Assembly (NCBI GenBank): GCA_964525655.1
Contig: CAZGHZ010000002.1
Span: 22,897 to 86,896 of the forward strand
Origin: an uncultured Terracidiphilus sp.
Lineage (GTDB): Bacteria; Acidobacteriota; Terriglobia; Terriglobales; Acidobacteriaceae
Reading direction: 5' to 3'
Length of the DNA: 64,000 bases
The notes beneath the pieces were generated by a model. The model did not search any database, was not told where the DNA came from, and saw only the letters and a list, made by a program, of their open reading frames with translations. The position numbers and the translations under genes were made by a program. Of this stretch, positions 23,376 through 48,903 are shown in pieces. Each line of letters starts with the position of its first letter. Position 1 is the stretch's first letter.

Positions 23376-23627
23376 TGCGTTCCATTCGGTCCTCGACCGC
23401 CAGTTATTAGCGGGGAGGATTGTGGAAAACTCGTGTGTGAACTACCGCTCCGGCCTGCCTGCATTCCCAAGTCGTCTCGATGCAGGCCGTTCGACGATAA
23501 ACCGCCAGCCAATTTCGCCGCAATTCCTTGCCGATGCTTCACTTGCACCTAAGCCCGCACGATAAGGAATGACGCAATCTTGGAGTATATCAGAGAAATC
23601 AAGGGCTCACACATTAACACAGTAGAT

Positions 23628-23659
23628 ATGATTCGTATACGAATAATTAACCGAATCAT
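23628..23659. promoter_or_regulatory. Putative operator: perfect 14-bp palindrome ATTCGTATACGAAT with an extra flanking half-site
   Basis: attcgtatacgaat at 23631-23644. The outer inverted repeat atgattcg (23628-23635) / cgaatcat (23652-23659) adds a half-site. It lies in an AT-rich patch of the 577-bp MarR/TonB-receptor intergenic region. The 10-mer recurs at 39151, 39291 and 58773. Confidence 0.5.
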
Positions 23660-23952
23660 CACACCGCAACAATACTGGATGCCTACACTCCGCTCATAAC
23701 CACCCTGCAATTGTCTCTGTCCGCCAACGAGACAGGGCCAATCTCAACCGATCGCAAGGAGCATGGCAATGCCATCCGAATTGCGGCACGCAGAGCCGGA
23801 TGCAATCCAGTCTCCATCGGTGTGTGAGGGGGAGATCGGAAATCGAAGTAGCGCCTCATGACGATTGCCGGTCATGGAGCAAGCAACACACCGCGATCGA
23901 TCGTCTCTGGAATGACGCGATCAAGTACTTCACTTTGAATGGGAGCAATCCA

Positions 23953-26900
23953 ATGCGATCTATCTTCTGCCAGATGCGAACTTACCTCATTGCAGGTGTG
24001 TTCCTGTTGGCCGCTTGTTTCGGAACGCAGCTCTTTGCACAGAGCGCGGTCGTCAGCGGTCAGGTTGCCGACGCCAGCGGCGCAGCCGTAAAAGGCGCCA
24101 CCATCACTCTTCTCCGGCCATCTACAGATGTGAAGACCACAACGGTCAGCGACGCCAGCGGTATCTTCATCCTGCCGCCGGTTCCGCCCGGTCATTATGA
24201 AATCACGGTGGCGGCAACGGGATTTGAGCCCTGGAAGGACACCGGTATCGTGCTCGAGATCGGCGAGCAAAAGGCTGTGAACGCGGTGCTTCTGATCGGG
24301 TCGGTGAATCAGACCGTGACTGTAAGTGACGCGCCGGCGGAGTTGCAAGTTGAAAACGCGGATCGCAGCACGCTGCTGGAGCCGACCTTTATCGAAGACC
24401 TTCCGCTCGATCCGCGCAACCCGCTGCAACTGATCTCGGCGACGATCGGCGTTACCTCGAACGACGGTCAGATCACCTCCGGTACAAACACCACCACGGA
24501 GAGCACGACCAATCAATTCCGTATCAACGGCGCACATATGACCACCACCGATTTGTTGATCGACGGCGGCGCGGACATGGTTGCCTATAACAGCCAGGCC
24601 GCGGGCATCCCCGGCGTGGATGCGACGCAGGAGTTTCGCGTGCTGACCTCGGCCTACGCGCCCGAGTATGGCTACACCAGCGGCGGTATCGTCGATTTCT
24701 CGCTCAAATCCGGCACCAATACCGTCCATGGCGGCGGCTGGGAATATGACCGCCAGGCCTTCATGGATGCCAACGGCCACAACGCCAATGTGGCGAGCAT
24801 TGCGAAACCTCCATTGCACAGAGACCAGTTCGGCGGCCAGTTCGGCGGGCCGATCATCATCCCCAAGCTCTACCACGGACGCGACAAGACTTTCTTCTAC
24901 TTCTCCTACGAAGGGCTGCGCGACACCTTCGAGCAGGCGGGCGGCTATAGCGCGCTGGTGCCGACGGACGCGATGATCGGCCGCAACGGACTGCCCGGCG
25001 GCGACTTCTCTGCCGCGACCAACAGCGCCAATTACCCGATTACGGGAATCTCAGTTTACGATCCGACGAAGCTTGTGAGCGGCAAGCGCGTGCAGTTTCC
25101 AAACAACATTATCCCGGCGAACAGGCTCGATCCTGTTGCAACGAAGCTGCTCTCGATGTACCCCTCTCCGACGCCGGGGTATTTCCAGCAGTCCAATGGC
25201 GCTTACAACTACTTCAACCCGGCCACGGAGACGGATATCGACGACAGCATCGATCTCCGCATCGATCATAAGTGGAGCGACAAACACAACATGTTTGGCC
25301 ACTTCGACCGCTTCAGCAACTACATCAAAAACCCCGATGAATACGGTCCTACCGGCCTGGGCCACGAGCAGGAACCGACCAACTCGGACGACCGCATTCC
25401 CGGCTACCATGCGCTGGTCAACCACACCTGGACCGTCAAGAACAACCTGATCTTCAATCACCATGGCTCCTGGGGGCATAGCGAATCGAACCGTGCATCG
25501 GTATTGCCGCTCTCGCCGAGCACAGTCTTCGGTTTCAATGCCGCAGCCGCGCCTGCCAGAACCAACACCTTCACTCCGCAGGTTGAGTCGGTCTCTGGCC
25601 AGCTCTCCACTATCGGCAACTCCGAGCCATTGGAGACTAACAAATCATCGGTCTACCAATATCAGGCCGATCTAAGCTGGCTCAGAGGAAAGCACACCTT
25701 CAAGATGGGAACCGATCTACGGCACTACTTCGTACAGCACTGGGATCCGCAACTGCTGACGCTCACGGGGAGCAAAGCCCTGACCGGCGGCCCGAATCCC
25801 ACCTCGACCAACACAAACGGCAGCGCCATTGCCGAACTCATGCTCGGCTTTACCCCCGTTCTGAGCGGTTATGAACCCCTGGTGACCATTCGCGATCAGG
25901 TGTATTTCGTCTACGGCGAGGACACCTACAAGATCACTCCGAAACTGACGGCAACCTACGGCGTCCGCTGGGGCGTGATCAACAGTTGGAAGTCAGACGG
26001 CAACATCCTGAACTATCTGGACCTCACTTCGGCCTCTCCGATCCAATTCGCAGCCAACCCCTATTTCACAAGCTTGACTGGCGGCATGGGCATTCCCGGC
26101 GTCAGCACCTCGTCTCGCAACCTGCAACAGGCCGGCATGGCGCACATCGAGCCTCGCCTTGGAATCGCTTATGCGATGAATGAAAAGACGGTCATTCATG
26201 CCGGCTTTGGCATCTTCCGCCATCCGCAGGCGTCGGAGGCATCGTACTCCGAGTTGGGTGGCTCAGCGCGCATCTCCACCGCGGTAAGCAACCAGTCTGT
26301 CGGCGGAAACTATGTAATCGCGCCTGGATCGAGCACCACCTCCACCGGCTGCGGCGCACCCCCTGGCGCCTGCTATACATTGGGGAACCCGTTCTTCTCC
26401 AGCCCCGGCCAGGCTCCTCCCGCTCCCTATGGAGACAATCCATCTCCGCTGGCTGGAAACAACACTGCGAGCGGTCCGCTGAGCATCGAAGCCGGACAGA
26501 GTGTCTCCGGCGACTTGCGCCAGCAGACCGGTCCGTACCAGGAGGTATCTTCTCTCGACGTACAGCGCGTGCTGCCGGCTCACTTCGTTGTTAGCGTGGG
26601 CTACATCCTCAATCAAGGCGTTCGCCTGCGGTCCGCCATACAGCTAGATCAGGTCTCCGACTCCGTGCTGGCTCAGTGCGTGACCGGTGCCACCGTTGCG
26701 GGCAAGGCCGTGGCCGGCGACCCATCCGGGAAGACCTGCCCTGCGCTGACCACCAACGTTCCCAATCCCTTTTACGGCTCCATCACCGACGCTAGCTCGA
26801 ATTTCCAGTATCCTGCCACAACGCCGGCCGGTTACTTGCAACGCGCTTATCCTCAGTTTGCGAAGTTCAACGCACTCGACGTGGGCTGGGGACATGCTTC

Positions 26901-27612
26901 CTATAACGCGTTGCAGGTTACGGCCCAGCACCGCCAGGCCAACGGCCTCTCGGTTCTGGTGGGCTACACCTATAGCAAGGAGATCGATCAAACCGGCGAT
27001 AGCGGCAGCACAGCCTACATTCAGGACAACGGCTGCCACGCCTGCGAACGCTCCGTCGGCGAGATGGACGCGACGCACAACTTCACAGAGAACACGGTGT
27101 ATGAGCTGCCCTTTGGTCACAGCCACACGTTCCTCAACAACGGCATTGCAGCGGTTCTGGCTGGCGGCTGGCAGTTAGGCGATGCCTACAAATTCTACAG
27201 CGGCCTGCCGGTTCAGCTCACTCAGTCCTCTACCGCGCTGATCGGCAACGCGGCGATTCGCCCAACGGTCGTCTCCGGCGCAAGCCTCAAGCCGACCTCT
27301 AGCACGCAGGCCTTCAACCCCGCGGCTTTCACCGTCACACCGGCATACATGTTCGGCAACGCGCCCCGGTATGACTCTCAAATCCGCTATCCCAACTACT
27401 CTAACCTTGACGCTTTCGTGCAGAAGGAAACCAAGTTCAAGGGGGAACGGATGAGCGTCTTGTTCCGCTTCGAACTGCTCAACGCGCCCAACCACGTGAT
27501 CATGGGCGCCCCCGCCGTCAACGCGAGCACAGCGTCGACCTTCGGCAACAAGTCCACCTCGCAAGTCAACCTGCCGCGCGAAGGCCAGCTGAGCGCGCGG
27601 TTCACGTTCTAA
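23953..27612 (+). CDS. TonB-dependent outer-membrane receptor with N-terminal carboxypeptidase-regulatory-like domain
   Basis: Signal peptide (LIAGVFLLAACFGTQLFAQS). CarboxypepD_reg segment (VSGQVADASGAAVKGATITLL...GIFILPPVPPGHYEITV). Long beta-barrel region ending in the aromatic C-terminus LSARFTF. Start trimmed to ATG 23953. Confidence 0.85.
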   Translation: MRSIFCQMRTYLIAGVFLLAACFGTQLFAQSAVVSGQVADASGAAVKGATITLLRPSTDVKTTTVSDASGIFILPPVPPGHYEITVAATGFEPWKDTGIVLEIGEQKAVNAVLLIGSVNQTVTVSDAPAELQVENADRSTLLEPTFIEDLPLDPRNPLQLISATIGVTSNDGQITSGTNTTTESTTNQFRINGAHMTTTDLLIDGGADMVAYNSQAAGIPGVDATQEFRVLTSAYAPEYGYTSGGIVDFSLKSGTNTVHGGGWEYDRQAFMDANGHNANVASIAKPPLHRDQFGGQFGGPIIIPKLYHGRDKTFFYFSYEGLRDTFEQAGGYSALVPTDAMIGRNGLPGGDFSAATNSANYPITGISVYDPTKLVSGKRVQFPNNIIPANRLDPVATKLLSMYPSPTPGYFQQSNGAYNYFNPATETDIDDSIDLRIDHKWSDKHNMFGHFDRFSNYIKNPDEYGPTGLGHEQEPTNSDDRIPGYHALVNHTWTVKNNLIFNHHGSWGHSESNRASVLPLSPSTVFGFNAAAAPARTNTFTPQVESVSGQLSTIGNSEPLETNKSSVYQYQADLSWLRGKHTFKMGTDLRHYFVQHWDPQLLTLTGSKALTGGPNPTSTNTNGSAIAELMLGFTPVLSGYEPLVTIRDQVYFVYGEDTYKITPKLTATYGVRWGVINSWKSDGNILNYLDLTSASPIQFAANPYFTSLTGGMGIPGVSTSSRNLQQAGMAHIEPRLGIAYAMNEKTVIHAGFGIFRHPQASEASYSELGGSARISTAVSNQSVGGNYVIAPGSSTTSTGCGAPPGACYTLGNPFFSSPGQAPPAPYGDNPSPLAGNNTASGPLSIEAGQSVSGDLRQQTGPYQEVSSLDVQRVLPAHFVVSVGYILNQGVRLRSAIQLDQVSDSVLAQCVTGATVAGKAVAGDPSGKTCPALTTNVPNPFYGSITDASSNFQYPATTPAGYLQRAYPQFAKFNALDVGWGHASYNALQVTAQHRQANGLSVLVGYTYSKEIDQTGDSGSTAYIQDNGCHACERSVGEMDATHNFTENTVYELPFGHSHTFLNNGIAAVLAGGWQLGDAYKFYSGLPVQLTQSSTALIGNAAIRPTVVSGASLKPTSSTQAFNPAAFTVTPAYMFGNAPRYDSQIRYPNYSNLDAFVQKETKFKGERMSVLFRFELLNAPNHVIMGAPAVNASTASTFGNKSTSQVNLPREGQLSARFTF

Positions 27613-27626
27613 CCAAATCCATCCAA

Positions 27627-27662
27627 CTGCCGGCGGCTCAGGCCGCCGGCAGTGCCGTTTTT
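27627..27662 (+). terminator. Rho-independent terminator after the TonB-receptor gene
   Basis: 11-bp GC stem ctgccggcggc / gccgccggcag, loop tcag, followed by tgccgttttt. Confidence 0.75.
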
Positions 27663-27707: not shown

Positions 27708-28856
27708 ATGACCGGCGAAGCAGTTCTGAAGAATGCCAAAATAGTTACTCCCACTGAAATCGTGGAGGGATCGGTCCATCTTCGCGACGGCTTGATTGCC
27801 GAACTTCAATCCGGGCCGCTCGAGTCCGTGAAGGCCATCGACTTTGAAGGCGACTATCTGATTCCCGGCCTGATCGATCTGCACACCGACAATCTGGAAC
27901 GGCACATGCGGCCGCGCAACTCAACCGATTGGCCCGCTGTTGCCGGAGTTTTGGCACACGATGCCGAGATGGCCGCGGTCGGAATCACGACTATTCTCGA
28001 CTCGCTGTATGTCGGCGGGAGAATGGCCGAAGGGTGGGAGAGCATCCTTGAGTCCGCCGTTTCAGCCATCGAGGCCGCACAGCGAGCGGGTATCCTCCGT
28101 GCAGATCATTTTCTGCACCTTCGCGCGGAGATCTCGCGTGAAGCCACGGTGGAGTGCTTCACAAGCGTCTATCCGAATCCGATCGTGCGCTTGGTTTCCA
28201 TCATGGATCACACGCCGGGGCAGCGCCAATTCGCCAACGGGGGCGGCGGCATGGGACGCGGTGGGCGCGGCGAACGGAACCGGGGAGCCAGCCAGCAGGA
28301 GCATCCCGCGCCGGAGATGACGGCGCAGGAACGGCGGGAGAAATACTCCGTGCCCAACCGCGCGCGTCTTCTCGAGATTCTGGCCGGCCACACGGTGCCG
28401 CTGGCCAGCCACGACGACACAACGGTCGAGCACATCGAGCAGTCGCATACAGAAGGCATCGGCATAGCCGAGTTCCCGACTACCATGGATGCCGCACAGG
28501 CGGCGCGCGAAAAACAGATGAAGATCGTTGCCGGCTCGCCCAACCTGGTTCTTGGCCGCTCGCGCAGCGGCAACGTCGCGGTCTCCGATCTGGTAAAAGC
28601 CGGCGCGATCGACGTGCTCGCGTCGGACTATGTTCCGGCGAGCCTGCTCTATGCGATCTTCCTGCTGGCAGACACGATGGAAGTGCCGCTGCCTAAGGCG
28701 GTAGGCTATGCGACCAGCGCTCCTGCGGATTTGGCGGGCTTTGCCGATCGCGGCAGCATTGCGCCGGGCAAGCGCGCCGATCTGGTGCGCGTGCGCGTCG
28801 TCGAGAAGATTCCGGTTCCCTCCATGGTCTGGCGCGGAGGAAAGCGTGTCTGCTGA
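27708..28856 (+). CDS. phnM: PhnM-family amidohydrolase (alpha-D-ribose 1-methylphosphonate 5-triphosphate diphosphatase-like), paralogue 1
   Basis: Colinear with E. coli PhnM: LIPGLIDLHTDNLE, SIMDHTPGQRQFAN, LASHDDTTVEH, AEFPTT, GSPNLVLGRSRSGNV, LASDYVPASLL, GKRADLV. Start at ATG 27708 with an AAGGA RBS. Confidence 0.85.
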   Translation: MTGEAVLKNAKIVTPTEIVEGSVHLRDGLIAELQSGPLESVKAIDFEGDYLIPGLIDLHTDNLERHMRPRNSTDWPAVAGVLAHDAEMAAVGITTILDSLYVGGRMAEGWESILESAVSAIEAAQRAGILRADHFLHLRAEISREATVECFTSVYPNPIVRLVSIMDHTPGQRQFANGGGGMGRGGRGERNRGASQQEHPAPEMTAQERREKYSVPNRARLLEILAGHTVPLASHDDTTVEHIEQSHTEGIGIAEFPTTMDAAQAAREKQMKIVAGSPNLVLGRSRSGNVAVSDLVKAGAIDVLASDYVPASLLYAIFLLADTMEVPLPKAVGYATSAPADLAGFADRGSIAPGKRADLVRVRVVEKIPVPSMVWRGGKRVC

Positions 28857-28959: not shown

Positions 28960-29820
28960 ATGAGAATCAGCGTCGACTTGCTCGAGGACGCCGCAACGTT
29001 CTCGGCGGTTGCGGGAGAGTTCCTGCGCTCGCGGCCGGTTCACCACAACCTGATGCTCACTCTGCTGGATGGCCGCCTGACCCGGCCTGAGCCGGGCCGC
29101 TATTGGGTCGCCACTCGCGACGGAGAGGTCGCCGGGGTAGTCTTTCAATCTCCGCTGACACATTCCGCGTTGCTGGTTCCAATGGAGCCTGAAGTGCTCG
29201 CTGCTCTAGCCGACGCGATGGCAGAAACGGGGGCCGCTCTTCCAGGCGTGAGTGGCGAAGCCGCAACGGCCGCCAGCTTTGCGGGCCGATGGACGGAAAA
29301 CACGAAGTCGGCAGCGGTTCCGAGGCAGGGACTTCGCATTTACGAATTGGACGGGCTAAAGGAGATCGGTTCAGTCGAGGGCAATCTGCGGAAAGCAGAA
29401 GAATCGGATCGCGCCCTGGCAGAGCGCTGGGCGCGCGAGTTTCAGACCGAGACCCACGAGCCATCCAGCGATCCCGCGCCCAGGGTCGATGCCTGGCTTG
29501 CAGCAGGGCAGATTTGGTTATGGCAGAACGGCGAAGCGGTGTCGATGACAGTGACTCGAAAATCTGCCCAGGGAGTCGTCCGGCTTGGGGGCGTGTATAC
29601 TCCTCCTGAGAAACGGGGCCGTGGCTACGCGACGGCCTGCGTTCATGGCATCTCGAAGGCGATCACCACGGCAGGCTTCCGCTGCATCCTGTATACCGAC
29701 CTGGGAAATCCAACGTCGAACTCCATCTATCGCAAGATCGGTTACCATGCGGTCAGTGAATGCCTTCACTACCGTTTTGAGCTGCCGGCGCAATCAGTTC
29801 ATCATGCTCAGACAATATGA
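28960..29820 (+). CDS. GNAT-family N-acetyltransferase (two-domain, ~286 aa)
   Basis: C-terminal acetyl-CoA binding region LGGVYTPPEKRGRGYATACVHGISKAI..YTDLGNPTSNSIYRKIGY. Start trimmed to ATG 28960 (MRISVDLLEDAATF). Confidence 0.75.
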   Translation: MRISVDLLEDAATFSAVAGEFLRSRPVHHNLMLTLLDGRLTRPEPGRYWVATRDGEVAGVVFQSPLTHSALLVPMEPEVLAALADAMAETGAALPGVSGEAATAASFAGRWTENTKSAAVPRQGLRIYELDGLKEIGSVEGNLRKAEESDRALAERWAREFQTETHEPSSDPAPRVDAWLAAGQIWLWQNGEAVSMTVTRKSAQGVVRLGGVYTPPEKRGRGYATACVHGISKAITTAGFRCILYTDLGNPTSNSIYRKIGYHAVSECLHYRFELPAQSVHHAQTI

Positions 29821-29860: not shown

Positions 29861-31000
29861 ATGACCGACGATTTGACGTTGAAGAATGCCAAAATCGTAA
29901 CGCCTACTGAAATTGTGGAAGGATCTGTCCATCTTCGCGACGGCTTGATTGCCGAGATTCAATCCGGAAAGAACGGACCGGCTAGCGCCATCGACCTCGA
30001 CGGCGACTACCTCATTCCCGGCCTCGTCGATCTGCACACCGATAATTTCGAGCGCCTTGTAAGGCCGAGGAACAGTGTGGATTGGCCGGTGACGGCTGCC
30101 TTGGTGGCGCACGACGCTCAGATGGTCTCCGCCGGAATCACCACCATCTTCGATTCGCTTTACGTAGGATTCCTCGGCTTCGGGTCCCGCAGCTTCGACA
30201 CGCTCAAGAATACGATCGCTGAGTTAGACACATGCCGGAGAAGTCTGATGTTTCGTGGAGATCACTTGCTCCACCTGCGCGCCGAGGTATCGATGGAAGT
30301 GATGCCCGAGCAGTTCGCCTCGGTTTATCCTGAGCCCAGCGTGCGGCTTGTTTCCCTGATGGATCATACGCCGGGACAGCGGCAGTGGAGAGATCTCGAC
30401 AAGTATGTCGCCATGGAGAAGAGGGATTTTCATCTCACGGAAGAAGAGATCAATAACTTCCTGAAGACTTCAAAAGAACGGCATGAGAAAGTCTCGCCGG
30501 CAAACCGCGTTAAGGTGATATCGATGGTGAAAGGTCATTCCGTGGTACTTGCCAGCCACGATGATACGACAGTCGAGCATGTCGATGCGGCTCATGCGGA
30601 GGGTATTACCGTTTCCGAGTTTCCCACGACAATCGAAGCGGCGGAAAGAGCGCGCGCCAGGGGAATGCATATCGTGGCCGGTTCGCCGAACCTGGTGTTG
30701 GGACGGTCGCACTCCGGCAATGTATCCGCGGAGGAACTTGCCCGCCGCGGCCTGCTGGATGCGCTTGCTTCCGATTATGTCCCATCCAGCCTGCTGCATG
30801 GCGCGTTCCTGCTCAACGAGAGGCTTGCAATGCCGCTGCCCGAGGCGATCAAGATGGTCACGATGGCTCCGGCGCGCATCGCAGGATTGCACGACCGCGG
30901 CAGCATCGAGACGGGCATGCGCGCCGATCTGGCGCGCGTGAAGATAGTGCAAGGCCTTCCACTTCCACTGGCGGTTTGGCGCGAAGGAGTGCGCGTGTGA
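29861..31000 (+). CDS. phnM: PhnM-family amidohydrolase, paralogue 2
   Basis: LIPGLVDLHTDNFE, SLMDHTPGQRQW, LASHDDTTVEH, SEFPTT, GSPNLVLGRSHSGNV, LASDYVPSSLL. 31 of the first 36 residues are identical to paralogue 1. Confidence 0.85.
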   Translation: MTDDLTLKNAKIVTPTEIVEGSVHLRDGLIAEIQSGKNGPASAIDLDGDYLIPGLVDLHTDNFERLVRPRNSVDWPVTAALVAHDAQMVSAGITTIFDSLYVGFLGFGSRSFDTLKNTIAELDTCRRSLMFRGDHLLHLRAEVSMEVMPEQFASVYPEPSVRLVSLMDHTPGQRQWRDLDKYVAMEKRDFHLTEEEINNFLKTSKERHEKVSPANRVKVISMVKGHSVVLASHDDTTVEHVDAAHAEGITVSEFPTTIEAAERARARGMHIVAGSPNLVLGRSHSGNVSAEELARRGLLDALASDYVPSSLLHGAFLLNERLAMPLPEAIKMVTMAPARIAGLHDRGSIETGMRADLARVKIVQGLPLPLAVWREGVRV

Positions 31001-31811: not shown

Positions 31812-31831
31812 TCGCCACTAGAATCGGTCGA

Positions 31832-39897: not shown

Positions 39898-40517
39898 GCG
39901 CTTTGGCGGAAGTAAAGCCCTACAACCAGGTCTTCGATGGCCAGAAACACTACCGGACTCTGCTGCAATGCACAGCGCGGCCAGGAACTATCGGTCAACT
40001 TGACGATGCCAAGGTGGAAGTTCCATCGCAACTGAACCGCGCTACCGCGCTGCTTGCGCTCGCGCTCTTCAGCGGGGACATCACGTTCTGGATCAATGAA
40101 GGGGCAGCGGCCGCCGCGAATTTCATTCAGCGCGAGACCAATGCCATGACGGCCCCTGCGGATAAGGCCGATTTCCTGGTTTTTACCGACATCGACCGGA
40201 TCGAGGAGCTTTTACAAGCAAAGCAGGGCACTCTCTCGTTTCCGGACCTGGGCGCGAGCGCGGTGCTGCAGGTTCAAGCCATCTCTCCGGCTCCGCTGGC
40301 GGAGTCGTTGCGTCTGAGACTCACAGGGCCGGGAATTGAAACGGAGACAGTGGTTTTTGTTTTGGGCGCATCCGAGGCATTCTTTGAGACTCTGCGGGAA
40401 CGGAATGCGGAGTTTCCGATCGGCGTGGATACTTTCTTGACCTGCGACAGCTTGTCGGCGGGTCCGTGTGTCATGGCTCTGCCCCGCACTACACGCGTGC
40501 ATTGGGAGCGGGTTTAA
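39894..40517 (+). CDS. phnH: Phosphonate C-P lyase system protein PhnH
   Basis: FDGQKHYRTLLQCTARPGTI, LRLTGPGI, FPIGVDTFLTC and ALPRTTRV match E. coli PhnH landmarks. ATGA overlap with phnG. Confidence 0.85.
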   Translation: MSALAEVKPYNQVFDGQKHYRTLLQCTARPGTIGQLDDAKVEVPSQLNRATALLALALFSGDITFWINEGAAAAANFIQRETNAMTAPADKADFLVFTDIDRIEELLQAKQGTLSFPDLGASAVLQVQAISPAPLAESLRLRLTGPGIETETVVFVLGASEAFFETLRERNAEFPIGVDTFLTCDSLSAGPCVMALPRTTRVHWERV

Positions 40518-40553: not shown

Positions 40554-41717
40554 ATGGGTTATGTAGCAGTCAAGGGCGGAGAGGACGCGATCGGGAACGC
40601 GAATAAACTGGTTGACTACTTCCGTTGGAAGGGCCGGACCAAGCCGATCGAACTCGATCAGGCGCGCACTCAGATGCGGCTGGCAGTGGACCGGGCCATG
40701 GGCGAGGGATCGCTCTATGCGCCGGAGTTGGCAGCGCTGGCGCTGCTGCAAGTGGAGGGCGACACCTTCGAAGCGGCGTTTCATTTGCGCGCCTACCGCG
40801 CGACGCTCGAGCGCCGCTACACTTCTGAGGTCATCGACACGCGAGAGATGTTCGTGCAGCGCCGCATCTCTTCAACCTTCCGCGATATACCTGGCGGCCA
40901 GATCCTCGGCCCCACGCGGGACTATTCTTTCCGGCTTCTGAATCCCGCCCTGCTCAATGCCAGCCTCGGCTCGATCGAGAAGTTTATCGCCGATCTCAAA
41001 GACGAGATCGATCCCAAGAAACTGCATGAGATGACCACTTACAAGAAAGTTATCGACATCTTCCTGAAGGAAGGCCTGATGAGCAGGAAGCCGCGTGAGG
41101 GCGAAGACCGGCGCGTCTTCGATGTAACCCGCGAGGCGATCAAGTTCCCGGTGCCGCGTTCCGCCGCGTTGCAGATGCTGGCCCGCGCGGACACGGGCGC
41201 GCTGATGTGCATGGCTTACAGCACCATGCGCGGCTTCGGCATGTCGCACGGAACGGTGGGCGAGTTGCGCGTCGGGGACGTGCTGGTGAAGGTTGTGGAC
41301 AAGCGCGGACGGACGCGCATCATCGGCAAGATCAAGGTTACCGAGGCAGAGATGGTCGGCGGCTCCGGCCGCGGCCAGACAGCCGATAGCGGCCGCGCGG
41401 CAAAAAGGAGTCCAGCGCCGCGGTACTCGATCGGCTACGGTCTTTGCTTTGGCCAGAACGAGACCAAGGGCATCTGCATGGGCATGGTGGAAAGCGCGCT
41501 GCGCACCCCGAATCCTGACAATCCCGCAAACAATCAGGAGTTCGTTCTGTATCACACCGAGGTGATTGAGGGTTACGGATTTACCAACCACCTCAAGCTG
41601 CCGCACTATGTCACCTTCCAGGCGGGAATGGAAGGCGCTCGCAGAAACGCCAGGAGAAACGCGGAACAAGGAAAGCAAGTGGCCGTGAGCGCGGGCGTGG
41701 AGGAAAACAATGATTGA
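40554..41717 (+). CDS. phnI: Phosphonate C-P lyase system protein PhnI
   Basis: MGYVAVKGGEDAIGNA, LAVDRAMGEGSLYAPELAALALLQVEGD, HLRAYRATL and IGYGLCFGQNETK match PhnI. Confidence 0.9.
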   Translation: MGYVAVKGGEDAIGNANKLVDYFRWKGRTKPIELDQARTQMRLAVDRAMGEGSLYAPELAALALLQVEGDTFEAAFHLRAYRATLERRYTSEVIDTREMFVQRRISSTFRDIPGGQILGPTRDYSFRLLNPALLNASLGSIEKFIADLKDEIDPKKLHEMTTYKKVIDIFLKEGLMSRKPREGEDRRVFDVTREAIKFPVPRSAALQMLARADTGALMCMAYSTMRGFGMSHGTVGELRVGDVLVKVVDKRGRTRIIGKIKVTEAEMVGGSGRGQTADSGRAAKRSPAPRYSIGYGLCFGQNETKGICMGMVESALRTPNPDNPANNQEFVLYHTEVIEGYGFTNHLKLPHYVTFQAGMEGARRNARRNAEQGKQVAVSAGVEENND

Positions 41718-42594
41718 AAACCTCAAGTTCCAGCATAGTTTCAACTATGCCTACATCGACGAGTACACCAAGAAAGAGATCCGCCGCAAGACGCTCAAGG
41801 CGGTTTGCATACCCGGCTATCAGGTTCCTTACTCATCGCCGGAGATGCCGATCTCGCGCGGGTGGGGAACGGGCGGCTTGCATGTCACGCTTTCTCTGGT
41901 CGGGCCCGACGATGTGCTCAAGATCATCGACCAGGGCAGCGACGCCAGCGTGAACGCCTGCAATCTGCGCAACTTCGTCAAAGAGATGTCCAACTGCGCT
42001 TTGACCTTCGACACGGCGGAGGCGACGCTGATCCAGACTCGCCATCGCGTTCCCGAAGAGATCTTGACCGAGAAGCAGATCCTGGTTCTCCAGGTGCCGC
42101 AGCCGGAGGTTCTCCGCGGCGTGGAGAGACACGAGGCCAAGACTCGCATCATGCACGGGGAGGCCGATTACGCCAAGATCTGGGTGACCCTTTACGAGGC
42201 CTATGTAAGAACCGGCGGGCTGCGCAGCGGGGCCGGCCATCCCATGATGGTCAACGGGCGTTATGTTGCCACGCCCTCTCCGATTCCGAGCTGGGATGTG
42301 CCGAATCTGAGCATGGCCCGCTGCCTCTATCTCTTTGGCGCGGGACGCGAAAAGCGCATCCACTGCGTTCCTCCCTTCACACGCGTCGAGCCGCTTGAGT
42401 TTGAAGATATCCGATTCAAGGTTGAGGAGTTTGCCGGCGTCAGGTGCTCCGTGTCGGGCCAGGACAAGGCCTTTATGGATCAGATCTACGCCGACGACCT
42501 GAGCAGCAGTTATGTGGTCAACGACAGCAACTTCCTTGACAAACTGCGGAAGGGTCCCCGGCCGCCGCAAAGACTTTTTACCAATCCCGAATAG
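41710..42594 (+). CDS. phnJ: PhnJ homologue (alpha-D-ribose 1-methylphosphonate 5-phosphate C-P lyase family) lacking the canonical Cys motif
   Basis: YAYIDEYTKKEIRR, IPGYQVP, GWGTGG, LIQTRHR, VNGRYV, LFGAGREKR and VPPFTRVE are colinear with E. coli PhnJ. The C-terminal CX2CX21CX5C is reduced to a single Cys (RCSVSGQ...VVNDSNFLD). Confidence 0.85.
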   Translation: MIENLKFQHSFNYAYIDEYTKKEIRRKTLKAVCIPGYQVPYSSPEMPISRGWGTGGLHVTLSLVGPDDVLKIIDQGSDASVNACNLRNFVKEMSNCALTFDTAEATLIQTRHRVPEEILTEKQILVLQVPQPEVLRGVERHEAKTRIMHGEADYAKIWVTLYEAYVRTGGLRSGAGHPMMVNGRYVATPSPIPSWDVPNLSMARCLYLFGAGREKRIHCVPPFTRVEPLEFEDIRFKVEEFAGVRCSVSGQDKAFMDQIYADDLSSSYVVNDSNFLDKLRKGPRPPQRLFTNPE

Positions 42595-42596
42595 AA

Positions 42597-43448
42597 ATGA
42601 AGGCCGCGATGGATAACCATTGGTTGTTGCGTGTTCGTAACCTGTCGAAAGTCTACGGCGAAGCTACGCCGGAAGTGCTTGAACGGACAGGACCGAGATT
42701 CAACTCGAATGTCTGCCCGAGGACCGGAGCTGTCGTCGCCGTAAGCGGCATCAATTTCGATCTCTATCCGGGCGAGGTGCTTGGCGTCGTCGGAGAGAGC
42801 GGCTCAGGCAAGAGTACGCTGGTTCAGATGCTCTACTTCGACCAGGAGGCGACTTGGGGCGAGGTGAACTTCAAGCCCGTCGAAGACGGCGCGGCCAACC
42901 TGTTCGATCTTTCCAACCAGAAGAAGCGCTACATTCGCAATCACCTGATGGGCATGGTCTATCAGAATCCACGCGACGGTTTGAATTTCCGCTTTTCGTC
43001 GGGAGGCAATATCGCCGAGAAGCTGCTGATGGCCAATGTATTTCATGTTGGAAAGATTCGCATCCGCGCCACCGACCTGCTGACGAAGACTGAAGTTCCG
43101 GTCAAGCGCATGGATGAGTCGCCGGCGCGCTTCAGCGGCGGCATGCAGCAGAGAGTGCAGATCGCCAAGGCGATGGCCAACAACCCGCCGCTTCTCTTGT
43201 TGGACGAGGTAACCAGCGGGCTGGATGTCTCAGTGCAGGCAAAGGTGCTCGACCTGATTCGCGGCCTGCAGCGTGATCTCGGCGTCTCGATGATCGTCGT
43301 CTCTCACGATCTTGGCGTGATACGGATGTTGACCGACCGCACCATGGTTCTCAAGCACGGCCAGATTGTTGAGCAGGGACTGACCGACCAGATCCTGCAA
43401 GACCCGCAAGATGGATACACGCAGCTTCTGGTCAGTTCGCTGCTCTAA
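42597..43448 (+). CDS. phnK: Phosphonate C-P lyase system ATP-binding protein PhnK
   Basis: GESGSGKST, FSGGMQQRVQIA, LLLDEVTSGLDVSVQA and the C-terminal PQDGYTQLLVSS resemble E. coli PhnK. Confidence 0.88.
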   Translation: MKAAMDNHWLLRVRNLSKVYGEATPEVLERTGPRFNSNVCPRTGAVVAVSGINFDLYPGEVLGVVGESGSGKSTLVQMLYFDQEATWGEVNFKPVEDGAANLFDLSNQKKRYIRNHLMGMVYQNPRDGLNFRFSSGGNIAEKLLMANVFHVGKIRIRATDLLTKTEVPVKRMDESPARFSGGMQQRVQIAKAMANNPPLLLLDEVTSGLDVSVQAKVLDLIRGLQRDLGVSMIVVSHDLGVIRMLTDRTMVLKHGQIVEQGLTDQILQDPQDGYTQLLVSSLL

Positions 43449-43492: not shown

Positions 43493-44206
43493 ATGGAAAA
43501 AATATTGAGAATTGTGGACCTGCAAAAACGGTTCGAGCTACACATCCTCAATGAGAAATCGATTGAGGCGCTGCATCAGGTCTCATTCGAGATGGACGAG
43601 GGGGAGATCATCGGACTCACCGGCAAGACCGGCTCGGGCAAATCCACCTTGATGAAATGCATCTATCGAACCTATCTCGCCACTGAGGGCAAGATACTCT
43701 ACGCAACCGGCCAGGGAAAGACCGTCGACCTTGCCAGCGCAAACGAGCATGAGGTTCTTCGGATTCGCAGATCTGAGATGACCTATTGCTCGCAGTTTCT
43801 CCAGGTCATTCCCCGCGTGCCTGCGCTCGATGTGGTTGCCTCGGCCCTTGTGTCGCGCGGCACCACGCTTGAAGAGGCAAGGAAGCTCACGTGCGAGTGC
43901 CTGGAACGGCTGAGCCTTCCTTCGGATCTGTGGGATGCCTATCCGGCGACCTTCAGCGGCGGCGAGCAGCAGCGCATCAACATTGCCCGCGCCATGATCT
44001 CGCGTCCGCGCATTCTGCTGGTCGATGAACCGACGGCCTCTCTCGATCTGAAGACCAAGGATGCGGTGATCGAAATGCTGCTCGATCTCAAGCGGGCCGG
44101 AACGTCGATCATTCTGATTACTCACGACGAACATACGTTGCGGAGAATGGCCGAACGCTCGCTGAATCTGGAAAACGGGCATCTCAAAGAAGTTGTCTAC
44201 GCTTGA
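43493..44206 (+). CDS. phnL: Phosphonate C-P lyase system ATP-binding protein PhnL
   Basis: GKTGSGKSTL, SQFLQVIPRVPALDVV, PATFSGGEQQRINIAR and LLVDEPTASLD match PhnL. Confidence 0.88.
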   Translation: MEKILRIVDLQKRFELHILNEKSIEALHQVSFEMDEGEIIGLTGKTGSGKSTLMKCIYRTYLATEGKILYATGQGKTVDLASANEHEVLRIRRSEMTYCSQFLQVIPRVPALDVVASALVSRGTTLEEARKLTCECLERLSLPSDLWDAYPATFSGGEQQRINIARAMISRPRILLVDEPTASLDLKTKDAVIEMLLDLKRAGTSIILITHDEHTLRRMAERSLNLENGHLKEVVYA

Positions 44207-44211
44207 GGGGA

Positions 44212-45153
44212 ATGATGAAGCGCCTGTGGAAGAGTCTGATCGTGCTTTCCATCGCGATGCTGTGTCTCTCGCTGGGCAGTTGCAGGGCAAGCCATGCGAG
44301 CGATGGACGGCCGGCAGTGTTGCACTTTGCATTTTCTCCGCAACAGGAGCAGTTAGAAGGGGGCGGGCTGCGCAAGGAGTTGATGCGCAAGTATCTTCAG
44401 GAACAACTGCACATGCCGGTCGATGTCGTAAAAGTAGAAGGATACGCCTCGACCATCGAGGCCATGCGCACGGAAAAGATAGATCTTGCAAACTTCGGTT
44501 CGCTTAGCTACACCATCGCGGCGCAGACTGCGGGCGCCGAGGCGATTACGGCCATGGGTAATCCCGACGGCACACTGGGTGGTTATCGGTCTGTGATCGC
44601 AGTGCCTAGAAACAGCCCGTATCACTCTCTTCAGGATTTGAAGGCTCATGCGAAGGATATTGTCTTTGCTTTTGGCGATCCTGCTTCGACCTCCGGCAAT
44701 CTCTATCCCCGCGTGGGCCTGCTGAACGCGGGCATCAATCCGGAGAAAGACTTTAAGAAGGTAATCTTCGCCGGCACGAGTCAACCTGCAACGGTCCTGA
44801 TGATTAAAGCAGGCAAAGTTGATGCGGGAGGGTTTATGCAAGCCGCAGCTAACCGGTTGCTCCTCACGCATAAGATTGATGCCTCCGACATCAATGTGAT
44901 TTGGACCTCGGATCCTATTCCTAACTCCTGCTATGCCGTTCGCAAGGGGCTTCCTGAACAACTGAAGAAGGATATTCAGGCGGCGTTGATTGCAATTCCC
45001 ACCAAAGATCCTGCGCTCTGGGCTAATCTTCTTAGCCTGCGGAGCACAATGTCGATCACTGGAACGCAATATGTCCCGGTCAAAGACTCGGACTATGACG
45101 GGCTCAGAAGATATTCGGGCCAGGTCAAGGACTTCAACTTTGTAGAAAAGTAG
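44212..45153 (+). CDS. phnD: Phosphonate/phosphite ABC transporter substrate-binding lipoprotein PhnD
   Basis: Lipobox LSLGSC; PhnD-like FGDPASTSGNLYP and position before phnC/phnE. Start set at ATG 44212; the track TTG at 44203 overlaps the phnL stop. Confidence 0.8.
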   Translation: MMKRLWKSLIVLSIAMLCLSLGSCRASHASDGRPAVLHFAFSPQQEQLEGGGLRKELMRKYLQEQLHMPVDVVKVEGYASTIEAMRTEKIDLANFGSLSYTIAAQTAGAEAITAMGNPDGTLGGYRSVIAVPRNSPYHSLQDLKAHAKDIVFAFGDPASTSGNLYPRVGLLNAGINPEKDFKKVIFAGTSQPATVLMIKAGKVDAGGFMQAAANRLLLTHKIDASDINVIWTSDPIPNSCYAVRKGLPEQLKKDIQAALIAIPTKDPALWANLLSLRSTMSITGTQYVPVKDSDYDGLRRYSGQVKDFNFVEK

Positions 45154-45159
45154 GCTTCC

Positions 45160-45999
45160 ATGCTTCATGTTTCTAACATTGTCGTAAAACTCCCGAGTGG
45201 CAAGCGGCTAGTCGACCGGGTAAGTTTCACGGTCGGTCGGGGCGAGTTCGTTGGAATTCTCGGATCGAGCGGAGCCGGCAAGTCTCTCACACTTCGGTGC
45301 ATTGTTGGACTCACAAAGCCTAACGAAGGCGAAATCACGCTCAACAGTCCATCCGGCAAGAGCTATCGCTCGACGAATGTTGGCCCGAAGGAATTGCGCA
45401 GGGCGCGTCGCCACATTGGACTTATCTTTCAAGGATCGAATCTGGTCAAGCGACTCACGGTCCTGGAGAATGTGATGCTCGGCCGCCTTGGGCACATCAG
45501 TCCTGTGCGCAGTTGGCTTCTTGGCTTCAAGGACTCCGAAGCGCGCGAAGCAATGGTGGCGCTGGACGGAGTCAAGATGGCCCCGTTTGCCGCGCGGCTG
45601 GCCGGTTCGCTCAGCGGCGGCGAAATGCAGCGCGTCTCTATCGCTCGAGCTATGCATCAGCGGCCCTTGATCTATCTTGCCGATGAGCCGATCTCCAGCC
45701 TCGACCCAAAGAATGCGGATGCGATCATGTCGATCCTACAGCCTCTCTCGCGAGAGACGCCGGTGATCGGCGCCTTTCATCAGCCGGCAGCCGTTGCCAG
45801 GTATTGCACACGCGCCATAGGCATACGCATGGGCAAGATCGTCTACGACGGCCCGGCGCAAATCTCGGCTCGTCAACTCGAATACATCTATGGCGGATCG
45901 GACGGAGAACCTGGCTCGCAGGCCTGGGAATCGGACTCGCAGCCGCCTTTCTTCGATTCCGGCATCGAGGCCGCGCTGCATCAAGGGGTGGCCGTCTAA
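45160..45999 (+). CDS. phnC: Phosphonate ABC transporter ATP-binding protein PhnC
   Basis: GSSGAGKS, IGLIFQGSNLVKRLTVLENV, LSGGEMQRVSIARA, LADEPISSLDP. Confidence 0.88.
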   Translation: MLHVSNIVVKLPSGKRLVDRVSFTVGRGEFVGILGSSGAGKSLTLRCIVGLTKPNEGEITLNSPSGKSYRSTNVGPKELRRARRHIGLIFQGSNLVKRLTVLENVMLGRLGHISPVRSWLLGFKDSEAREAMVALDGVKMAPFAARLAGSLSGGEMQRVSIARAMHQRPLIYLADEPISSLDPKNADAIMSILQPLSRETPVIGAFHQPAAVARYCTRAIGIRMGKIVYDGPAQISARQLEYIYGGSDGEPGSQAWESDSQPPFFDSGIEAALHQGVAV

Positions 46000-46839
46000 A
46001 TGGGTCTATCGAATTCACAGTCGTCCCGGCAAGAGCCTCCGTTCCTGGAATGGAAGCAAAGCATCACCGGCCGGCGCAGGAAGCTGGCTACCGTTGTCGT
46101 TGTTCTGGCTCTTTTGGTCGCTTTCACGTCATGGCGTTGCGATGTCAGTCTTGGGTCGCTGATTACGGGATACGAGCGAATCGTTCCGCTGCTGGGAATG
46201 TTCTTTCCCCCGGATTGGTCAGGACTGGTTGGCATGCTGCAGCCGCTCGCGGTCACCGTCGTGCTGGCGATGGCGGCCACAATCATGGGTATGTGCCTGT
46301 CTTTGCCTTGCGCGCTTGCTGCGTCCTCAAACCTCGCGCCCGGACCGATGCGCTTGGCCATGCGTGCATTCATCGCGCTGGAGCGGGGCTTGCCGGAGAT
46401 TGTCCAACTGCTTCTGCTCATCGCCATATTCGGATTGGGCGTCGTACCCGGTCTCATTGCGCTCTCCATCAGCAGCATTGGGATGCTGGCCAAACTGCTT
46501 GCCGACGCAATTGAAGAGATTGAACCGCAGATGCTCGAGGCCGTGGCTGGAACAGGCGCCACGCGGTCACAGGTCATTCGCTATGCGGTCGTTCCGCAGA
46601 TTCTTCCAGCATTGTTTGCCAATGGCCTGTTTCAGTTTGAATTCAACGTTCGTACAAGTATCATCCTTGGCGCGATCGGCGCAGGCGGAATCGGGTATGT
46701 GATGAGAACCTCCATGATGTCCATGGACTATCGAACCTCCTGCATGGCCACTCTGCTCACGCTCGCCCTGGTCTTCTCGACGGAACGAGTATCGGACTTC
46801 CTTCGAGCGCGCATCCTAAGCGGAGGGTTGCTGCGATGA
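46000..46839 (+). CDS. phnE: Phosphonate ABC transporter permease PhnE (1 of 2)
   Basis: Polytopic permease with the PhnE-type motif EAVAGTGATRSQVIRYAVVPQILP. Its start abuts the phnC stop. Confidence 0.85.
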   Translation: MGLSNSQSSRQEPPFLEWKQSITGRRRKLATVVVVLALLVAFTSWRCDVSLGSLITGYERIVPLLGMFFPPDWSGLVGMLQPLAVTVVLAMAATIMGMCLSLPCALAASSNLAPGPMRLAMRAFIALERGLPEIVQLLLLIAIFGLGVVPGLIALSISSIGMLAKLLADAIEEIEPQMLEAVAGTGATRSQVIRYAVVPQILPALFANGLFQFEFNVRTSIILGAIGAGGIGYVMRTSMMSMDYRTSCMATLLTLALVFSTERVSDFLRARILSGGLLR

Positions 46840-47660
46840 GCATCGATGTCCCAGCCGGCGCTCTGCCGTCGCGCAAATTCCGCCTCACGATCGTCTACAT
46901 TGTGTCAGTGTTTGCCACATTGTTCTTTCTGTTCTGGTTTCTGGATCTAAGCCCGGATAGCATCTTCGTTGACTTCCGCTTTATTCCGGATCTCGCGCAC
47001 CAGATGTTTCCCCCCAACATCGCTCTTCTCTGGACCAAGAGCGCGATGTTGACCTCATTGATCGAGACGCTGTCGATGGCCTTCCTGGCCACCGTCTGCG
47101 GTGGCGGCATGGCTCTGCTCCTTGCATTTCTCGCCGCAACCAATACCACGCCGCATCAGCTCATTAGGGTCGCCGTACGCGCCTTACTGGCCATGGAGCG
47201 CTCGGTACCGCAATTGGTTGTCATTCTTGTGTTGTTGATTGCCGTCGGCATTGGACCCTTCGCAGGAGTGTTGGCTCTGACGATCGGTTCAATGGGAATG
47301 TACGGCAAGTTTTTCGCCGACGCTATCGAACAGGCCGACAGAGCGATTCTTGAATCCGTGCAGAGCGTGGGAAGCACCCGCATGCAGACGATTCGCTATG
47401 CGGTGCTGCCGCAGGTGATGCCGTCATTTGTTGCAAATCTGTTTTATGCCTTCGACTACAATCTGCGCTTGGCCGTTCCCCTGGGTATCTTCGGCGGTGG
47501 CGGCATCGGCTTTGAACTTGAATTTGCTCGCGGCCTGCTTCACTACAAGGATGTGATGGCGTACACCATTCTGATCGTAGTGATGATTACCGCCATGGAA
47601 CGTATCTCCGACTGGGTGCGCCGCAGCATCATCACGCAACCGCAACTGGTCACTAAGTGA
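46836..47660 (+). CDS. phnE: Phosphonate ABC transporter permease PhnE (2 of 2)
   Basis: ESVQSVGSTRMQTIRYAVLPQVMP motif. ATGA overlap with the first phnE. Confidence 0.85.
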   Translation: MSIDVPAGALPSRKFRLTIVYIVSVFATLFFLFWFLDLSPDSIFVDFRFIPDLAHQMFPPNIALLWTKSAMLTSLIETLSMAFLATVCGGGMALLLAFLAATNTTPHQLIRVAVRALLAMERSVPQLVVILVLLIAVGIGPFAGVLALTIGSMGMYGKFFADAIEQADRAILESVQSVGSTRMQTIRYAVLPQVMPSFVANLFYAFDYNLRLAVPLGIFGGGGIGFELEFARGLLHYKDVMAYTILIVVMITAMERISDWVRRSIITQPQLVTK

Positions 47661-47694
47661 CGCAATTGAAACAAGGGAGCCTCTGAAAAAAGCC

Positions 47695-48903
47695 ATGACG
47701 GAGACCATACTGACCAATGCCCATATTGTTTGCCCCGACAGGGAATTCGATGGTTCGCTCGTGCTCGAAGACGGAATCATTGCCGAAATCCTGTCGTGTC
47801 ATCTTGCCAGTGGAATCGATCTGCATGGCGCCGTCCTGATCCCCGGCGTCATCGATATCCACACCGATTATCTCGAGCGCGAGATCAGCCCGCGGCCGAC
47901 GGCCAAGATCCCGCTTGAGCTGGCGTTGCATGTGATGGATCTGCGCGCTCTCAGTTGCGGCCTGACGACCGTGAGCACCGCGGCCCGCATTTCTGAGGAG
48001 CGCGAAGGCCATCCAGGCTCCTGGCGTGGAGACGGACTGGCGTTGGCGAAGAGATTTCAAGAGCTGATTCCGGAACTGCGCGCGCACCATCTGATCCATG
48101 TTCGCTGGAACACGAGCTTTACGCCGGACGAATCGGTTCTCGATCAGTTGCTGGAACTTAAGAGCATCGCCAATCTGGTCTTCAACGACGATATGCCCGG
48201 CCAGCGCCAGTTCCGTGACATTGAGGCGCTGCTCCAACAGCAAGCCACCCGCCAGAACATCTCCATCGAAGAGGCGCGGGCGCGGATGCAGGAGCGCATC
48301 GAACGGGCCAGCAAGATTAACAACCGGATGATGGTCAAGGCTCGCGTGGCCGGCAGGATTCCCCTAGGCAGCCACGACGACACCACAGTCGAGCACGTCA
48401 TCGAAGCATACGAGTCCGGAGCCAGCCTGTGCGAGATGCCGTGCTCGATCGAAGCCGCGCGGAAGGCAAAGGAACTGGGCATGATGGTCTGCATGGGCGC
48501 GCCGAACTACTACCGCGGCGGTTCCCACTGCGGCAATCTCTCCTGCCACGATGCGATGGCGGAAAACCTGGTCGACATCATCTGCAGCGACTATCATTTT
48601 CCGTCGATGCTAGCCTGCGCCCTTCGTATGGCCAAGGAAGGCATGACGCTCTCCGAGGCGATCAAATTGTTTACCCTGAATCCGGCGCGGCATCTAGGGA
48701 TGGCGGAGAGAACCGGCAGCATTGAAGTTGGCAAGCAGGCCGACCTCGTGGCTTTCCATCCGCACAACGGTTACGGAGATGTCGCTCGTGTCTGGGTTGA
48801 CGGCAAGGAACGCTACTCATCCCTCATGGACAGAGAAAACCGGAGACAGCCGGCACTTGAAGATTGCGATCAACTGGAGGAGGATGCTGTTTCAGCCAAT
48901 TGA
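47695..48903 (+). CDS. phnM: PhnM-family amidohydrolase, paralogue 3 (operon-terminal)
   Basis: LIPGVIDIHTDYLE, DDMPGQRQF, LGSHDDTTVEH, GAPNYYRGGSHCGN, CSDYHFPSML, GKQADLV. More divergent than paralogues 1 and 2. Confidence 0.8.
   Translation: MTETILTNAHIVCPDREFDGSLVLEDGIIAEILSCHLASGIDLHGAVLIPGVIDIHTDYLEREISPRPTAKIPLELALHVMDLRALSCGLTTVSTAARISEEREGHPGSWRGDGLALAKRFQELIPELRAHHLIHVRWNTSFTPDESVLDQLLELKSIANLVFNDDMPGQRQFRDIEALLQQQATRQNISIEEARARMQERIERASKINNRMMVKARVAGRIPLGSHDDTTVEHVIEAYESGASLCEMPCSIEAARKAKELGMMVCMGAPNYYRGGSHCGNLSCHDAMAENLVDIICSDYHFPSMLACALRMAKEGMTLSEAIKLFTLNPARHLGMAERTGSIEVGKQADLVAFHPHNGYGDVARVWVDGKERYSSLMDRENRRQPALEDCDQLEEDAVSAN

Follow-up and report, generated by a model that had tools for sequence, protein, structure and literature searches.

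The window analysed here is a 64,000-nt stretch of contig CAZGHZ010000002.1, from an uncultured Terracidiphilus species, and it carries an extended cluster of phosphonate (phn) genes in which the PhnJ homologue has lost most of its signature cysteines. We read this cluster, which lies between about 20.3 and 48.9 kb, as a conserved and jointly regulated system of soil Acidobacteria for the uptake of organophosphorus compounds and the extraction of their phosphorus, one that would combine ribosylation of the carbon-phosphorus (C-P) lyase type with non-radical chemistry and a phosphate-releasing end; from sequence comparison we give this reading a probability of roughly 0.4. A first-pass annotation of the same DNA had described three adjacent units of phn-related genes, and NCBIfam and Pfam scans of the list of open reading frames (ORFs) reproduced the genes and coordinates of all three, as follows.

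23953-27612, plus strand: TonB-dependent outer-membrane receptor (Pfam OMP_b-brl_4, E 6e-171, and CarboxypepD_reg)
27708-28856, plus strand: PhnM-1, an amidohydrolase of the RPnTP diphosphatase family (NF011984, 463 bits)
28960-29820, plus strand: GNAT acetyltransferase of 286 amino acids (Pfam FR47/Acetyltransf_1; gene call in L046)
29861-31000, plus strand: PhnM-2, 56% identical to PhnM-1 (NF011984, 504 bits)
31083-31811, plus strand: S51 peptidase (Pfam Peptidase_S51, E 2.6e-51)
31808-32410, plus strand: P-loop kinase, PRK06217/AAA_18 (NF004861, 231 bits)
32405-33103, minus strand: LbH (hexapeptide) transferase of the phn-associated family TIGR03308 (289 bits)
33126-34598, minus strand: alpha-D-phosphohexomutase, TASHNP and DGDGDR motifs retained
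34595-35311, minus strand: DUF1045 2H phosphoesterase (PF06299, E 3e-48; TIGR03223)
35338-37320, minus strand: ABC exporter-type half-transporter 1 (ABC_membrane and ABC_tran)
37317-39133, minus strand: ABC exporter-type half-transporter 2, start probably GTG near 39133 (ABC exporter family; relatives compared)
39418-39897, plus strand: PhnG (TIGR03293)
39894-40517, plus strand: PhnH (TIGR03292)
40554-41717, plus strand: PhnI (PF05861, E 7e-120)
41710-42594, plus strand: PhnJ homologue without the radical S-adenosylmethionine (SAM) and thiyl cysteines (PF06007, E 2e-117)
42597-43448, plus strand: PhnK (TIGR02323)
43493-44206, plus strand: PhnL (TIGR02324)
44203-47660, plus strand: PhnD-PhnC-PhnE-PhnE ABC importer (TIGR01098/TIGR03431, TIGR02315, TIGR01097 twice)
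47695-48903, plus strand: PhnM-3, an operon-linked divergent paralogue (TIGR02318, 325 bits)

These scans confirm the gene content proposed for the three units, with the PhnGHIJKL set, a PhnCDE phosphonate importer and three phnM copies, all matching PhnM models (NF011984/TIGR02318, E 1e-87 to 1e-151). The spacing given for them is exact in the ORF list (4-nt overlaps with 22- and 26-nt gaps in the second unit, gaps of 44 nt or less in the third), and the first and second units do converge with a 6-nt overlap at 32405-32410. The receptor start at 23953 has GGGAG just upstream, and the gene calls of same-species assemblies give 286 amino acids for the GNAT protein and 200 for the kinase.

Textbook accounts of bacterial phosphonate breakdown assign the radical-SAM step to PhnJ, which also serves as a marker gene for phosphonate use and aerobic methane production in metagenomes. 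When the window protein is aligned with PhnJ of Escherichia coli (7z15_D), C241 is kept but C244 is replaced by serine, C266 by valine and C272 by leucine; the earlier statement that PhnJ lacks its Cys motif therefore stands for these three positions and not for C241. Three of the four signature cysteines of the CX2CX21CX5C motif, which comprises three [4Fe-4S] ligands and the thiyl-radical Cys272, have thus gone, and since two of the three cluster ligands and the thiyl-radical cysteine are among them, the protein, judged by its sequence, cannot act as a radical-SAM enzyme of the known type. The alignment is unbroken and the ORF stops 19 residues further on, so that a frameshift is ruled out, and the C-terminus carries a new motif, VVNDSNFLDKLRKGPRPPQRLFTNPE. 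A detached Cys-rich PhnJ C-terminal domain was found in none of the six frames of the window, and no radical-SAM gene occurs in any neighbourhood examined. The site of the glycyl radical, Gly32 in E. coli, corresponds to G36 of the window PhnJ, within an IPGYQVP motif. The AlphaFold2 model of the protein is poor (mean predicted local distance difference test score, pLDDT, 61.9).

The substitutions recur well beyond the source species. Nearly all of the best 120 homologues of the window PhnJ (72-93% identity) carry them, a single cysteine standing at position 244 among the 117 that were aligned for residue counts, and each of the 120 has only one or two cysteines in its final 62 residues; sampled tails share V[VI]NDSNFLDK..RPPQRLFTNP. 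This group, clade A, spans Acidobacteriota, Verrucomicrobiota and Bacteroidota (loci L001-L025), and a scan of one genome per species placed it in Acidobacteriaceae/Terracidiphilus, Vicinamibacterales, Bryobacteraceae, Opitutales, Chthoniobacterales and a metagenome-assembled genome (MAG) of Tenacibaculum. The nearest outgroup, L026 (an Omnitrophota MAG, 60% identity), has the canonical CxxC...C...C arrangement, so the loss is clade-specific; the canonical cysteine motif is also found in Actinobacteria PhnJ at 51-54% identity. A further group, clade B, occurs in Chloroflexota (L027, L029, L044 and L045) and in Rhodobacterales MAGs, among them the Pseudorhodobacter MAG P0514. Its 120 homologues (71-97% identity to the query) share no conserved cysteine, with only 84% at the C241 position; G32, R107, H108 and Q124 are invariant, and the C-terminal extension, TYYDDEGNFYHDGYLK, differs from that of clade A. 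In a neighbour-joining tree built without the C-terminal domain, clade A is monophyletic and clade B is weakly placed as its sister. A search of PhnJ representatives returned mostly fragments and few additional Cys-poor examples, the family being conserved strongly enough for clustering at 50% identity to collapse it. Taken on these alignments, the loss of the cysteines is real and selected, and the Cys-less PhnJ is a widespread clade, not a local oddity.

Public annotation gives the Cys-less proteins the name PhnJ. Papers that name the motif use its four cysteines as a conserved check on function (e.g., PMC11978286), and neither full-text searches of the literature nor targeted look-ups returned an account of a PhnJ without it, so that the group is apparently undescribed. 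The newness of the locus would reside in this PhnJ clade and in its specific partners, namely the EEP enzyme, the mutase, the exporter pair, the receptor, and the MarR gene with its operator.

The remainder of the C-P lyase machinery is retained. In the E. coli complex the iron-sulfur (Fe-S) site lies about 30 Å from Gly32, and the cyclic-phosphate product, 5-phosphoribosyl 1,2-cyclic phosphate (PRcP), is bound at a distant PhnI-PhnJ zinc site by H328 and H333 (plus H219) of PhnI and by R107, H108, Q124 and loop 47-50 of PhnJ (PMC9947105). Every one of these His-site residues is conserved in the window (PhnI H232, H346 and H351; PhnJ R111, H112, Q128 and the GWGT loop), and the PRcP contacts of PhnJ show no variation in clade A or clade B. 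PhnK and PhnL have intact Walker A, signature and Walker B motifs. Because the zinc site and a cyclic phosphodiesterase have both been retained, PRcP is probably still the intermediate.

The neighbourhood is conserved as well. Within 10 kb of the Cys-less phnJ, counted over 18 distinct clade-A loci, the PhnGHIJKL set is present in all 18, the LbH transferase and DUF1045 in 15 each, the first exporter in 14, and the phosphomutase, the second exporter and the complete exporter pair in 13, while a gene of the PhnM-3 type follows PhnE in 17 of the 17 loci that reach that position. L002, L006, L007, L010 and L019 have one more ABC gene of the exporter type after PhnM-3, with 26-32% identity to exporter 1. 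The complete layout recurs in L035, a diverged metagenome contig (94% identity for PhnJ, 58-90% for the other proteins) and the one useful locus of a metagenome scan with the phosphomutase: MarR gene, receptor (68% identity, equivalent position), PhnM-1, GNAT, PhnM-2 and kinase; LbH, mutase, DUF1045 and two exporters; PhnGHIJKL and PhnD. TonB receptors of like architecture adjoin the operon in one Bryobacteraceae and one Vicinamibacterales locus. In clade B the operons comprise PhnGHIKL, PhnM, LbH, an EEP gene and a weak DUF1045-like gene, and in three loci the protein encoded after PhnL gives weak but consistent DUF1045/2H-like matches. The proposal that the three units belong together is therefore borne out by the synteny of the second unit with phnGHIJKL in 13-15 of 18 related loci, by L035, and by a palindrome that the units share.

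That palindrome, the adjacent regulator and the genes to its left extend the cluster past position 23376, where the first-pass annotation had set its left edge. The features concerned are these.

20296-21093, minus strand: HAD-family phosphatase, a possible member of the left-hand unit, contiguous and co-stranded with the HD and EEP genes (NCBIfam TIGR02252/TIGR01549)
21021-21599, minus strand: HD-domain phosphohydrolase, YfbR-like (Pfam HD_3, E 5.5e-46)
21600-22469, minus strand: EEP-family (Exo_endo_phos) enzyme, cytoplasmic, about 289 amino acids (Pfam PF03372)
22785-23375, minus strand: MarR-family regulator, candidate repressor of the regulon (NCBIfam MarR-type matches; palindrome adjoining in the window, L035 and L017)
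23632-23643, no strand: perfect 12-bp operator-like palindrome TTCGTATACGAA, between the MarR and receptor genes (pattern scan; equivalent position in L035)
27626-27653, plus strand: strong terminator-like hairpin directly 3' of the receptor gene (12-bp stem with 10 G-C pairs, then a T run)
39148-39159, no strand: operator-like palindrome TACGTATACGAA, one mismatch, in the exporter/phnG region (kept in relatives)
39292-39303, no strand: operator-like palindrome TTCGTATACGCA, one mismatch, 115 nt upstream of phnG (kept in relatives)

At one mismatch or fewer the window holds three copies of the palindrome, against 0.06 expected. Most of the Acidobacteriaceae relatives keep the copies of the divergent region: at the one-mismatch threshold, both are present in eight loci and one in four more. 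The MarR-side copy is kept in L035 and L017. This in-silico evidence suggests that the units form one regulon, in which the MarR protein, acting through TTCGTATACGAA in the place of PhnF, is the likely regulator and the receptor, the exporter pair and the phnG operon are probably under its joint control. The second and third units are indeed divergent, but the 181 bp allotted to the region between them followed from a longest-ORF assumption; comparison with relatives and the operator at 39148-39159 place the exporter start near 39133, which gives about 284 bp. Likewise, the genes assigned to the first unit stand, while their single transcript is in doubt, the hairpin suggesting that the receptor is transcribed apart from phnM-1 and that there may be two transcripts. 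A scan for the sigma-70 promoter consensus, probably unsuited to the host phylum, returned no sites, and an Rfam scan of the whole window matched no RNA family. A weaker fourth copy of the palindrome (TTCGTATACCAT, two mismatches), which may be due to chance, is found at 58774-58785, near the 5' end of a GNAT ORF (58218-58898, minus strand).

The genes for the EEP, HD and HAD enzymes follow the MarR gene on the minus strand (20296-22778), and both clades have Cys-less phn clusters with an EEP homologue inside (L017, L001, L035, L023, L045 and L044). Among solved structures, the EEP protein is closest to uncharacterised proteins of Bacteroides and to the mannosyl-6-phosphatase 4c1r, Nocturnin being more distant. 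It would thus seem to be of the sugar-phosphate monoesterase type, and we propose that it is a sugar-bisphosphate phosphatase.

In comparison with the E. coli phnCDEFGHIJKLMNOP cluster (4xb6, 7z15), the window has homologues of PhnC, D, E, G, H, I, J, K, L and M (49% identity for PhnJ, 42% for PhnI and up to 42% for PhnM) and keeps Gly32 and the PhnI-PhnJ His-site residues. Unlike E. coli, its PhnJ is without C244, C266 and C272, a MarR-type regulator with a palindromic operator is present, and a TonB receptor, an exporter pair, a phosphomutase, EEP, HD and HAD enzymes and three PhnM copies are added. The absence of phnF, phnN and phnP that had been claimed is upheld, and holds for PhnO too: none of the four E. 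coli queries gave a tblastn match in the 64-kb window at E <= 0.01, and PhnN of Ruegeria as a query found no homologue there either. The GNAT protein does not match E. coli PhnO and is not its ortholog.

DUF1045 and the LbH transferase, although part of a locus whose gene content the first-pass annotation had called non-standard, are known accessories that also occur in four-Cys clusters. The plasmid of Ruegeria sp. SCSIO 43209 (NZ_CP065362.1) resembles the window in having DUF1045 (40% identity) for PhnP, an LbH protein of the TIGR03308 type (44%), PhnCDEE, GHIJKL and M; it differs in that its PhnJ has the four cysteines and its PhnG a single one, PhnN and PhnF are present, and the exporter pair, phosphomutase, EEP enzyme and TonB receptor are missing. 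In the window DUF1045 protein the two H-x-T/S-x motifs that characterise 2H proteins are present as HATL at residue 68 and HMSL at residue 179, and the L001 homologue also matches PF13563. DUF1045 is a recognised 2H-phosphodiesterase substitute in phn operons without PhnP (PMC10574752, PMC3266647, PMC11893972), and by analogy the window protein may fill the role of the PRcP phosphodiesterase.

As for the other accessories, the phosphohexomutase has the catalytic serine loop TASHNP, the metal loop DGDGDR and the phosphate loop RxSGTE, the three canonical loops of such mutases, and its sugar loop reads LDACGH where phosphomannomutase/phosphoglucomutase enzymes have GEMSGH, which hints at a non-hexose substrate such as ribose phosphate. 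The significance attached to the triplication of PhnM was overstated: extra copies are common in other phn clusters, and about eleven PhnM sub-models of NCBIfam already recognise divergent forms. The stretch that is G-x-S-H-x-G-N in E. coli PhnM, PhnM-2 and PhnM-3 (canonical GGSHSGN) reads GRSRSGN in PhnM-1; a probable metal-site histidine would be replaced by arginine, and this copy may have a different catalytic role or none. The S51 peptidase, which had been included as a component of the system, lies between PhnM-2 and the kinase in same-species assemblies but is absent from that place in L006, L007 and L035, in all of which the kinase gene and the stop of PhnM-2 share 4 nt; the peptidase appears to be an insertion specific to the source species. 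The PRK06217-family kinase, unrelated to PhnN, is a candidate for its replacement. We considered whether the kinase might be a phn-specific family, and this was ruled out by a 61%-identical Bradyrhizobium homologue in an unrelated context, outside any phn cluster. Sequence searches of the PDB with the kinase, DUF1045 and GNAT proteins gave no matches.

Other departures from the E. coli arrangement offer a partial parallel for the end of the pathway. Ghodge et al., in 2013, reportedly described a phosphate-releasing cyclic phosphodiesterase route in Eggerthella lenta. The phn operon of Trichodesmium erythraeum is a variant without PhnN, PhnO and PhnP (reviewed in PMC10574752). The window resembles both variants in that downstream steps are taken by other phosphoesterases and phosphorus may leave as phosphate instead of phosphoribosyl pyrophosphate (PRPP), but its own enzymes (DUF1045 and an EEP phosphatase) belong to different families. 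The clade-B clusters (L029, L044, L045 and P0514) share with the window the PhnJ without the motif, PhnGHIKL, PhnM, LbH and EEP, their DUF1045-like protein being a weak match; they differ from it by their lack of any conserved PhnJ cysteine, by their tail and in that neither an exporter pair nor a phosphomutase or TonB receptor was observed.

It is tempting to assemble these elements into a pathway. Family membership shows a TonB-dependent receptor and the PhnDCEE importer for bringing the substrate in, and PhnG, H, I, K and L with ATP, together with PhnM, for joining it to ribose 5-phosphate in the manner of the C-P lyase pathway. Cleavage might then proceed without a radical, the ribose 2-OH attacking phosphorus at the PhnI-PhnJ zinc site to give PRcP, whose ring would be opened by the DUF1045 2H phosphodiesterase; an EEP-type sugar phosphatase could free phosphate, with the phosphomutase, the kinase and the HD and HAD proteins helping and the ribose phosphate being returned to metabolism. 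Such an ending by DUF1045, EEP, mutase and kinase would replace PhnP and PhnN. Non-radical chemistry of this kind needs a heterolytic leaving group on phosphorus, and therefore the substrates are probably not plain alkylphosphonates. The suggestion of a variant pathway, perhaps one that serves a different class of substrate, is reasonable, the loss of the PhnJ cysteines being its key anomaly. More tentative than the overall reading is the general claim that would follow from it, of a widespread natural form of PhnGHIJKL that has no iron-sulfur cluster and cleaves the bond between phosphorus and its substituent non-radically at the PhnI-PhnJ zinc site; we regard it as possible but doubtful.

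Several observations weigh against this scheme. For substrates with good leaving groups, a pathway that costs ATP looks wasteful in comparison with simple phosphatases, the exporter pair has no role in it, a canonical phnJ could lie elsewhere in the genome, and the roles of the EEP enzyme and of the kinase were drawn from distant relatives and from gene context, respectively. Others concern the cysteines of clade A, which leave an alternative metal or Fe-S site possible. With a single exception, the 117 homologues that were aligned have cysteine at E. coli PhnJ positions 80, 92 and 241 (C84, C96 and C246 of the window protein), as do the clade-A loci of full length, including those of Tenacibaculum and Opitutales; position 201 (C205) is cysteine in 97% of the clade. 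Cysteine contents of 3.8% in PhnG, 2.0% in PhnJ and 2.7% in PhnM-3 compare with a background of 0.68% in the other ORFs of the window; PhnG has six cysteines where E. coli has one, and PhnM-3 has 11, of which three (C266, C279 and C297) never vary in clade A and lie beside the GGSH and SDY metal motifs. Gly32, the radical carrier of the canonical enzyme, is still invariant. One might thus suppose that the radical enzyme has been rewired, clade-A PhnJ binding Fe-S through C84, C96 and C246 (perhaps C205), or a Cys-rich PhnG or PhnM-3 supplying the cluster, so that a normal alkylphosphonate C-P lyase works with a relocated cofactor site. We consider this unlikely: the three new positions read V, V and A in E. 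coli and A, A and H in clade B, as in an exchange of buried small residues and not of ligand sites; no invariant fourth cysteine could stand in for the thiyl C272, position 205 being T or N in L022 and L024; just two of the PhnG cysteines hold across the clade; and clade B, the apparent sister, has no conserved cysteine at all.

The exporter pair invites another explanation, which we also find improbable, to a very similar degree. The core complex of E. coli needs PhnJ structurally (PMC9947105), and here PhnJ might be a scaffold only, in a complex that carries out the PhnI-type ribosylation and the PhnM step; other enzymes would take the product further or the ABC pair would export it, as in detoxification or the making of a secreted compound, or else a canonical phnJ elsewhere would do the cleaving. 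In keeping with this, the pair is divergent from phnG, with an operator region in common, in the 13 of 18 loci that have it, and several acetyltransferases are present. However, a pure scaffold would hardly need the invariant PRcP contacts of PhnJ, DUF1045-type cyclic phosphodiesterases have been retained, the PhnDCEE importer and TonB receptor point to uptake and catabolism, and neither a phosphoenolpyruvate (PEP) mutase nor any further biosynthetic gene turned up in the neighbourhoods. That the cluster makes a secreted phosphonate was considered separately and ruled out, there being no PEP mutase and importer genes being always present. It is hardly credible, lastly, that the locus is an ordinary C-P lyase locus whose peculiarities are annotation noise, gene decay or chance adjacency of operons, even if all core phn families are there and public annotation says PhnJ: identities of 72-94% across orders and phyla and the conserved new C-terminal motif speak against decay, synteny and the common operator against chance adjacency, and the canonical motif of the Omnitrophota outgroup against anything but a clade-specific loss.

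If the non-radical reading is true, a second mechanistic class of "C-P lyase" complexes would exist, with a different substrate range, and part of the phnJ counted in soil and environmental metagenomes would not report methane-forming phosphonate cleavage. Since the Cys-less proteins are annotated as PhnJ, counts of canonical C-P lyase may be too high in surveys of soils and of other habitats rich in Acidobacteriota and Chloroflexota. The conserved DUF1045, EEP phosphatase and phosphomutase suggest that the pathway would end in the release of phosphate and not in PRPP, and variants that keep the zinc site and Gly32 without the cluster ligands would offer a direct experimental handle on how the Fe-S, Gly32 and zinc sites fit together.

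Two further genes of the window deserve mention. A cysteine-free GH31 glycosidase gene (48956-51838, minus strand) sits after PhnM-3, in the place that the third exporter-type gene has in several relatives. At 10720-11331, an ORF joins Gp49-like (HigB-type toxin) and HTH_37 antitoxin-like domains, and may be a toxin-antitoxin fusion or a pair of genes taken for one.

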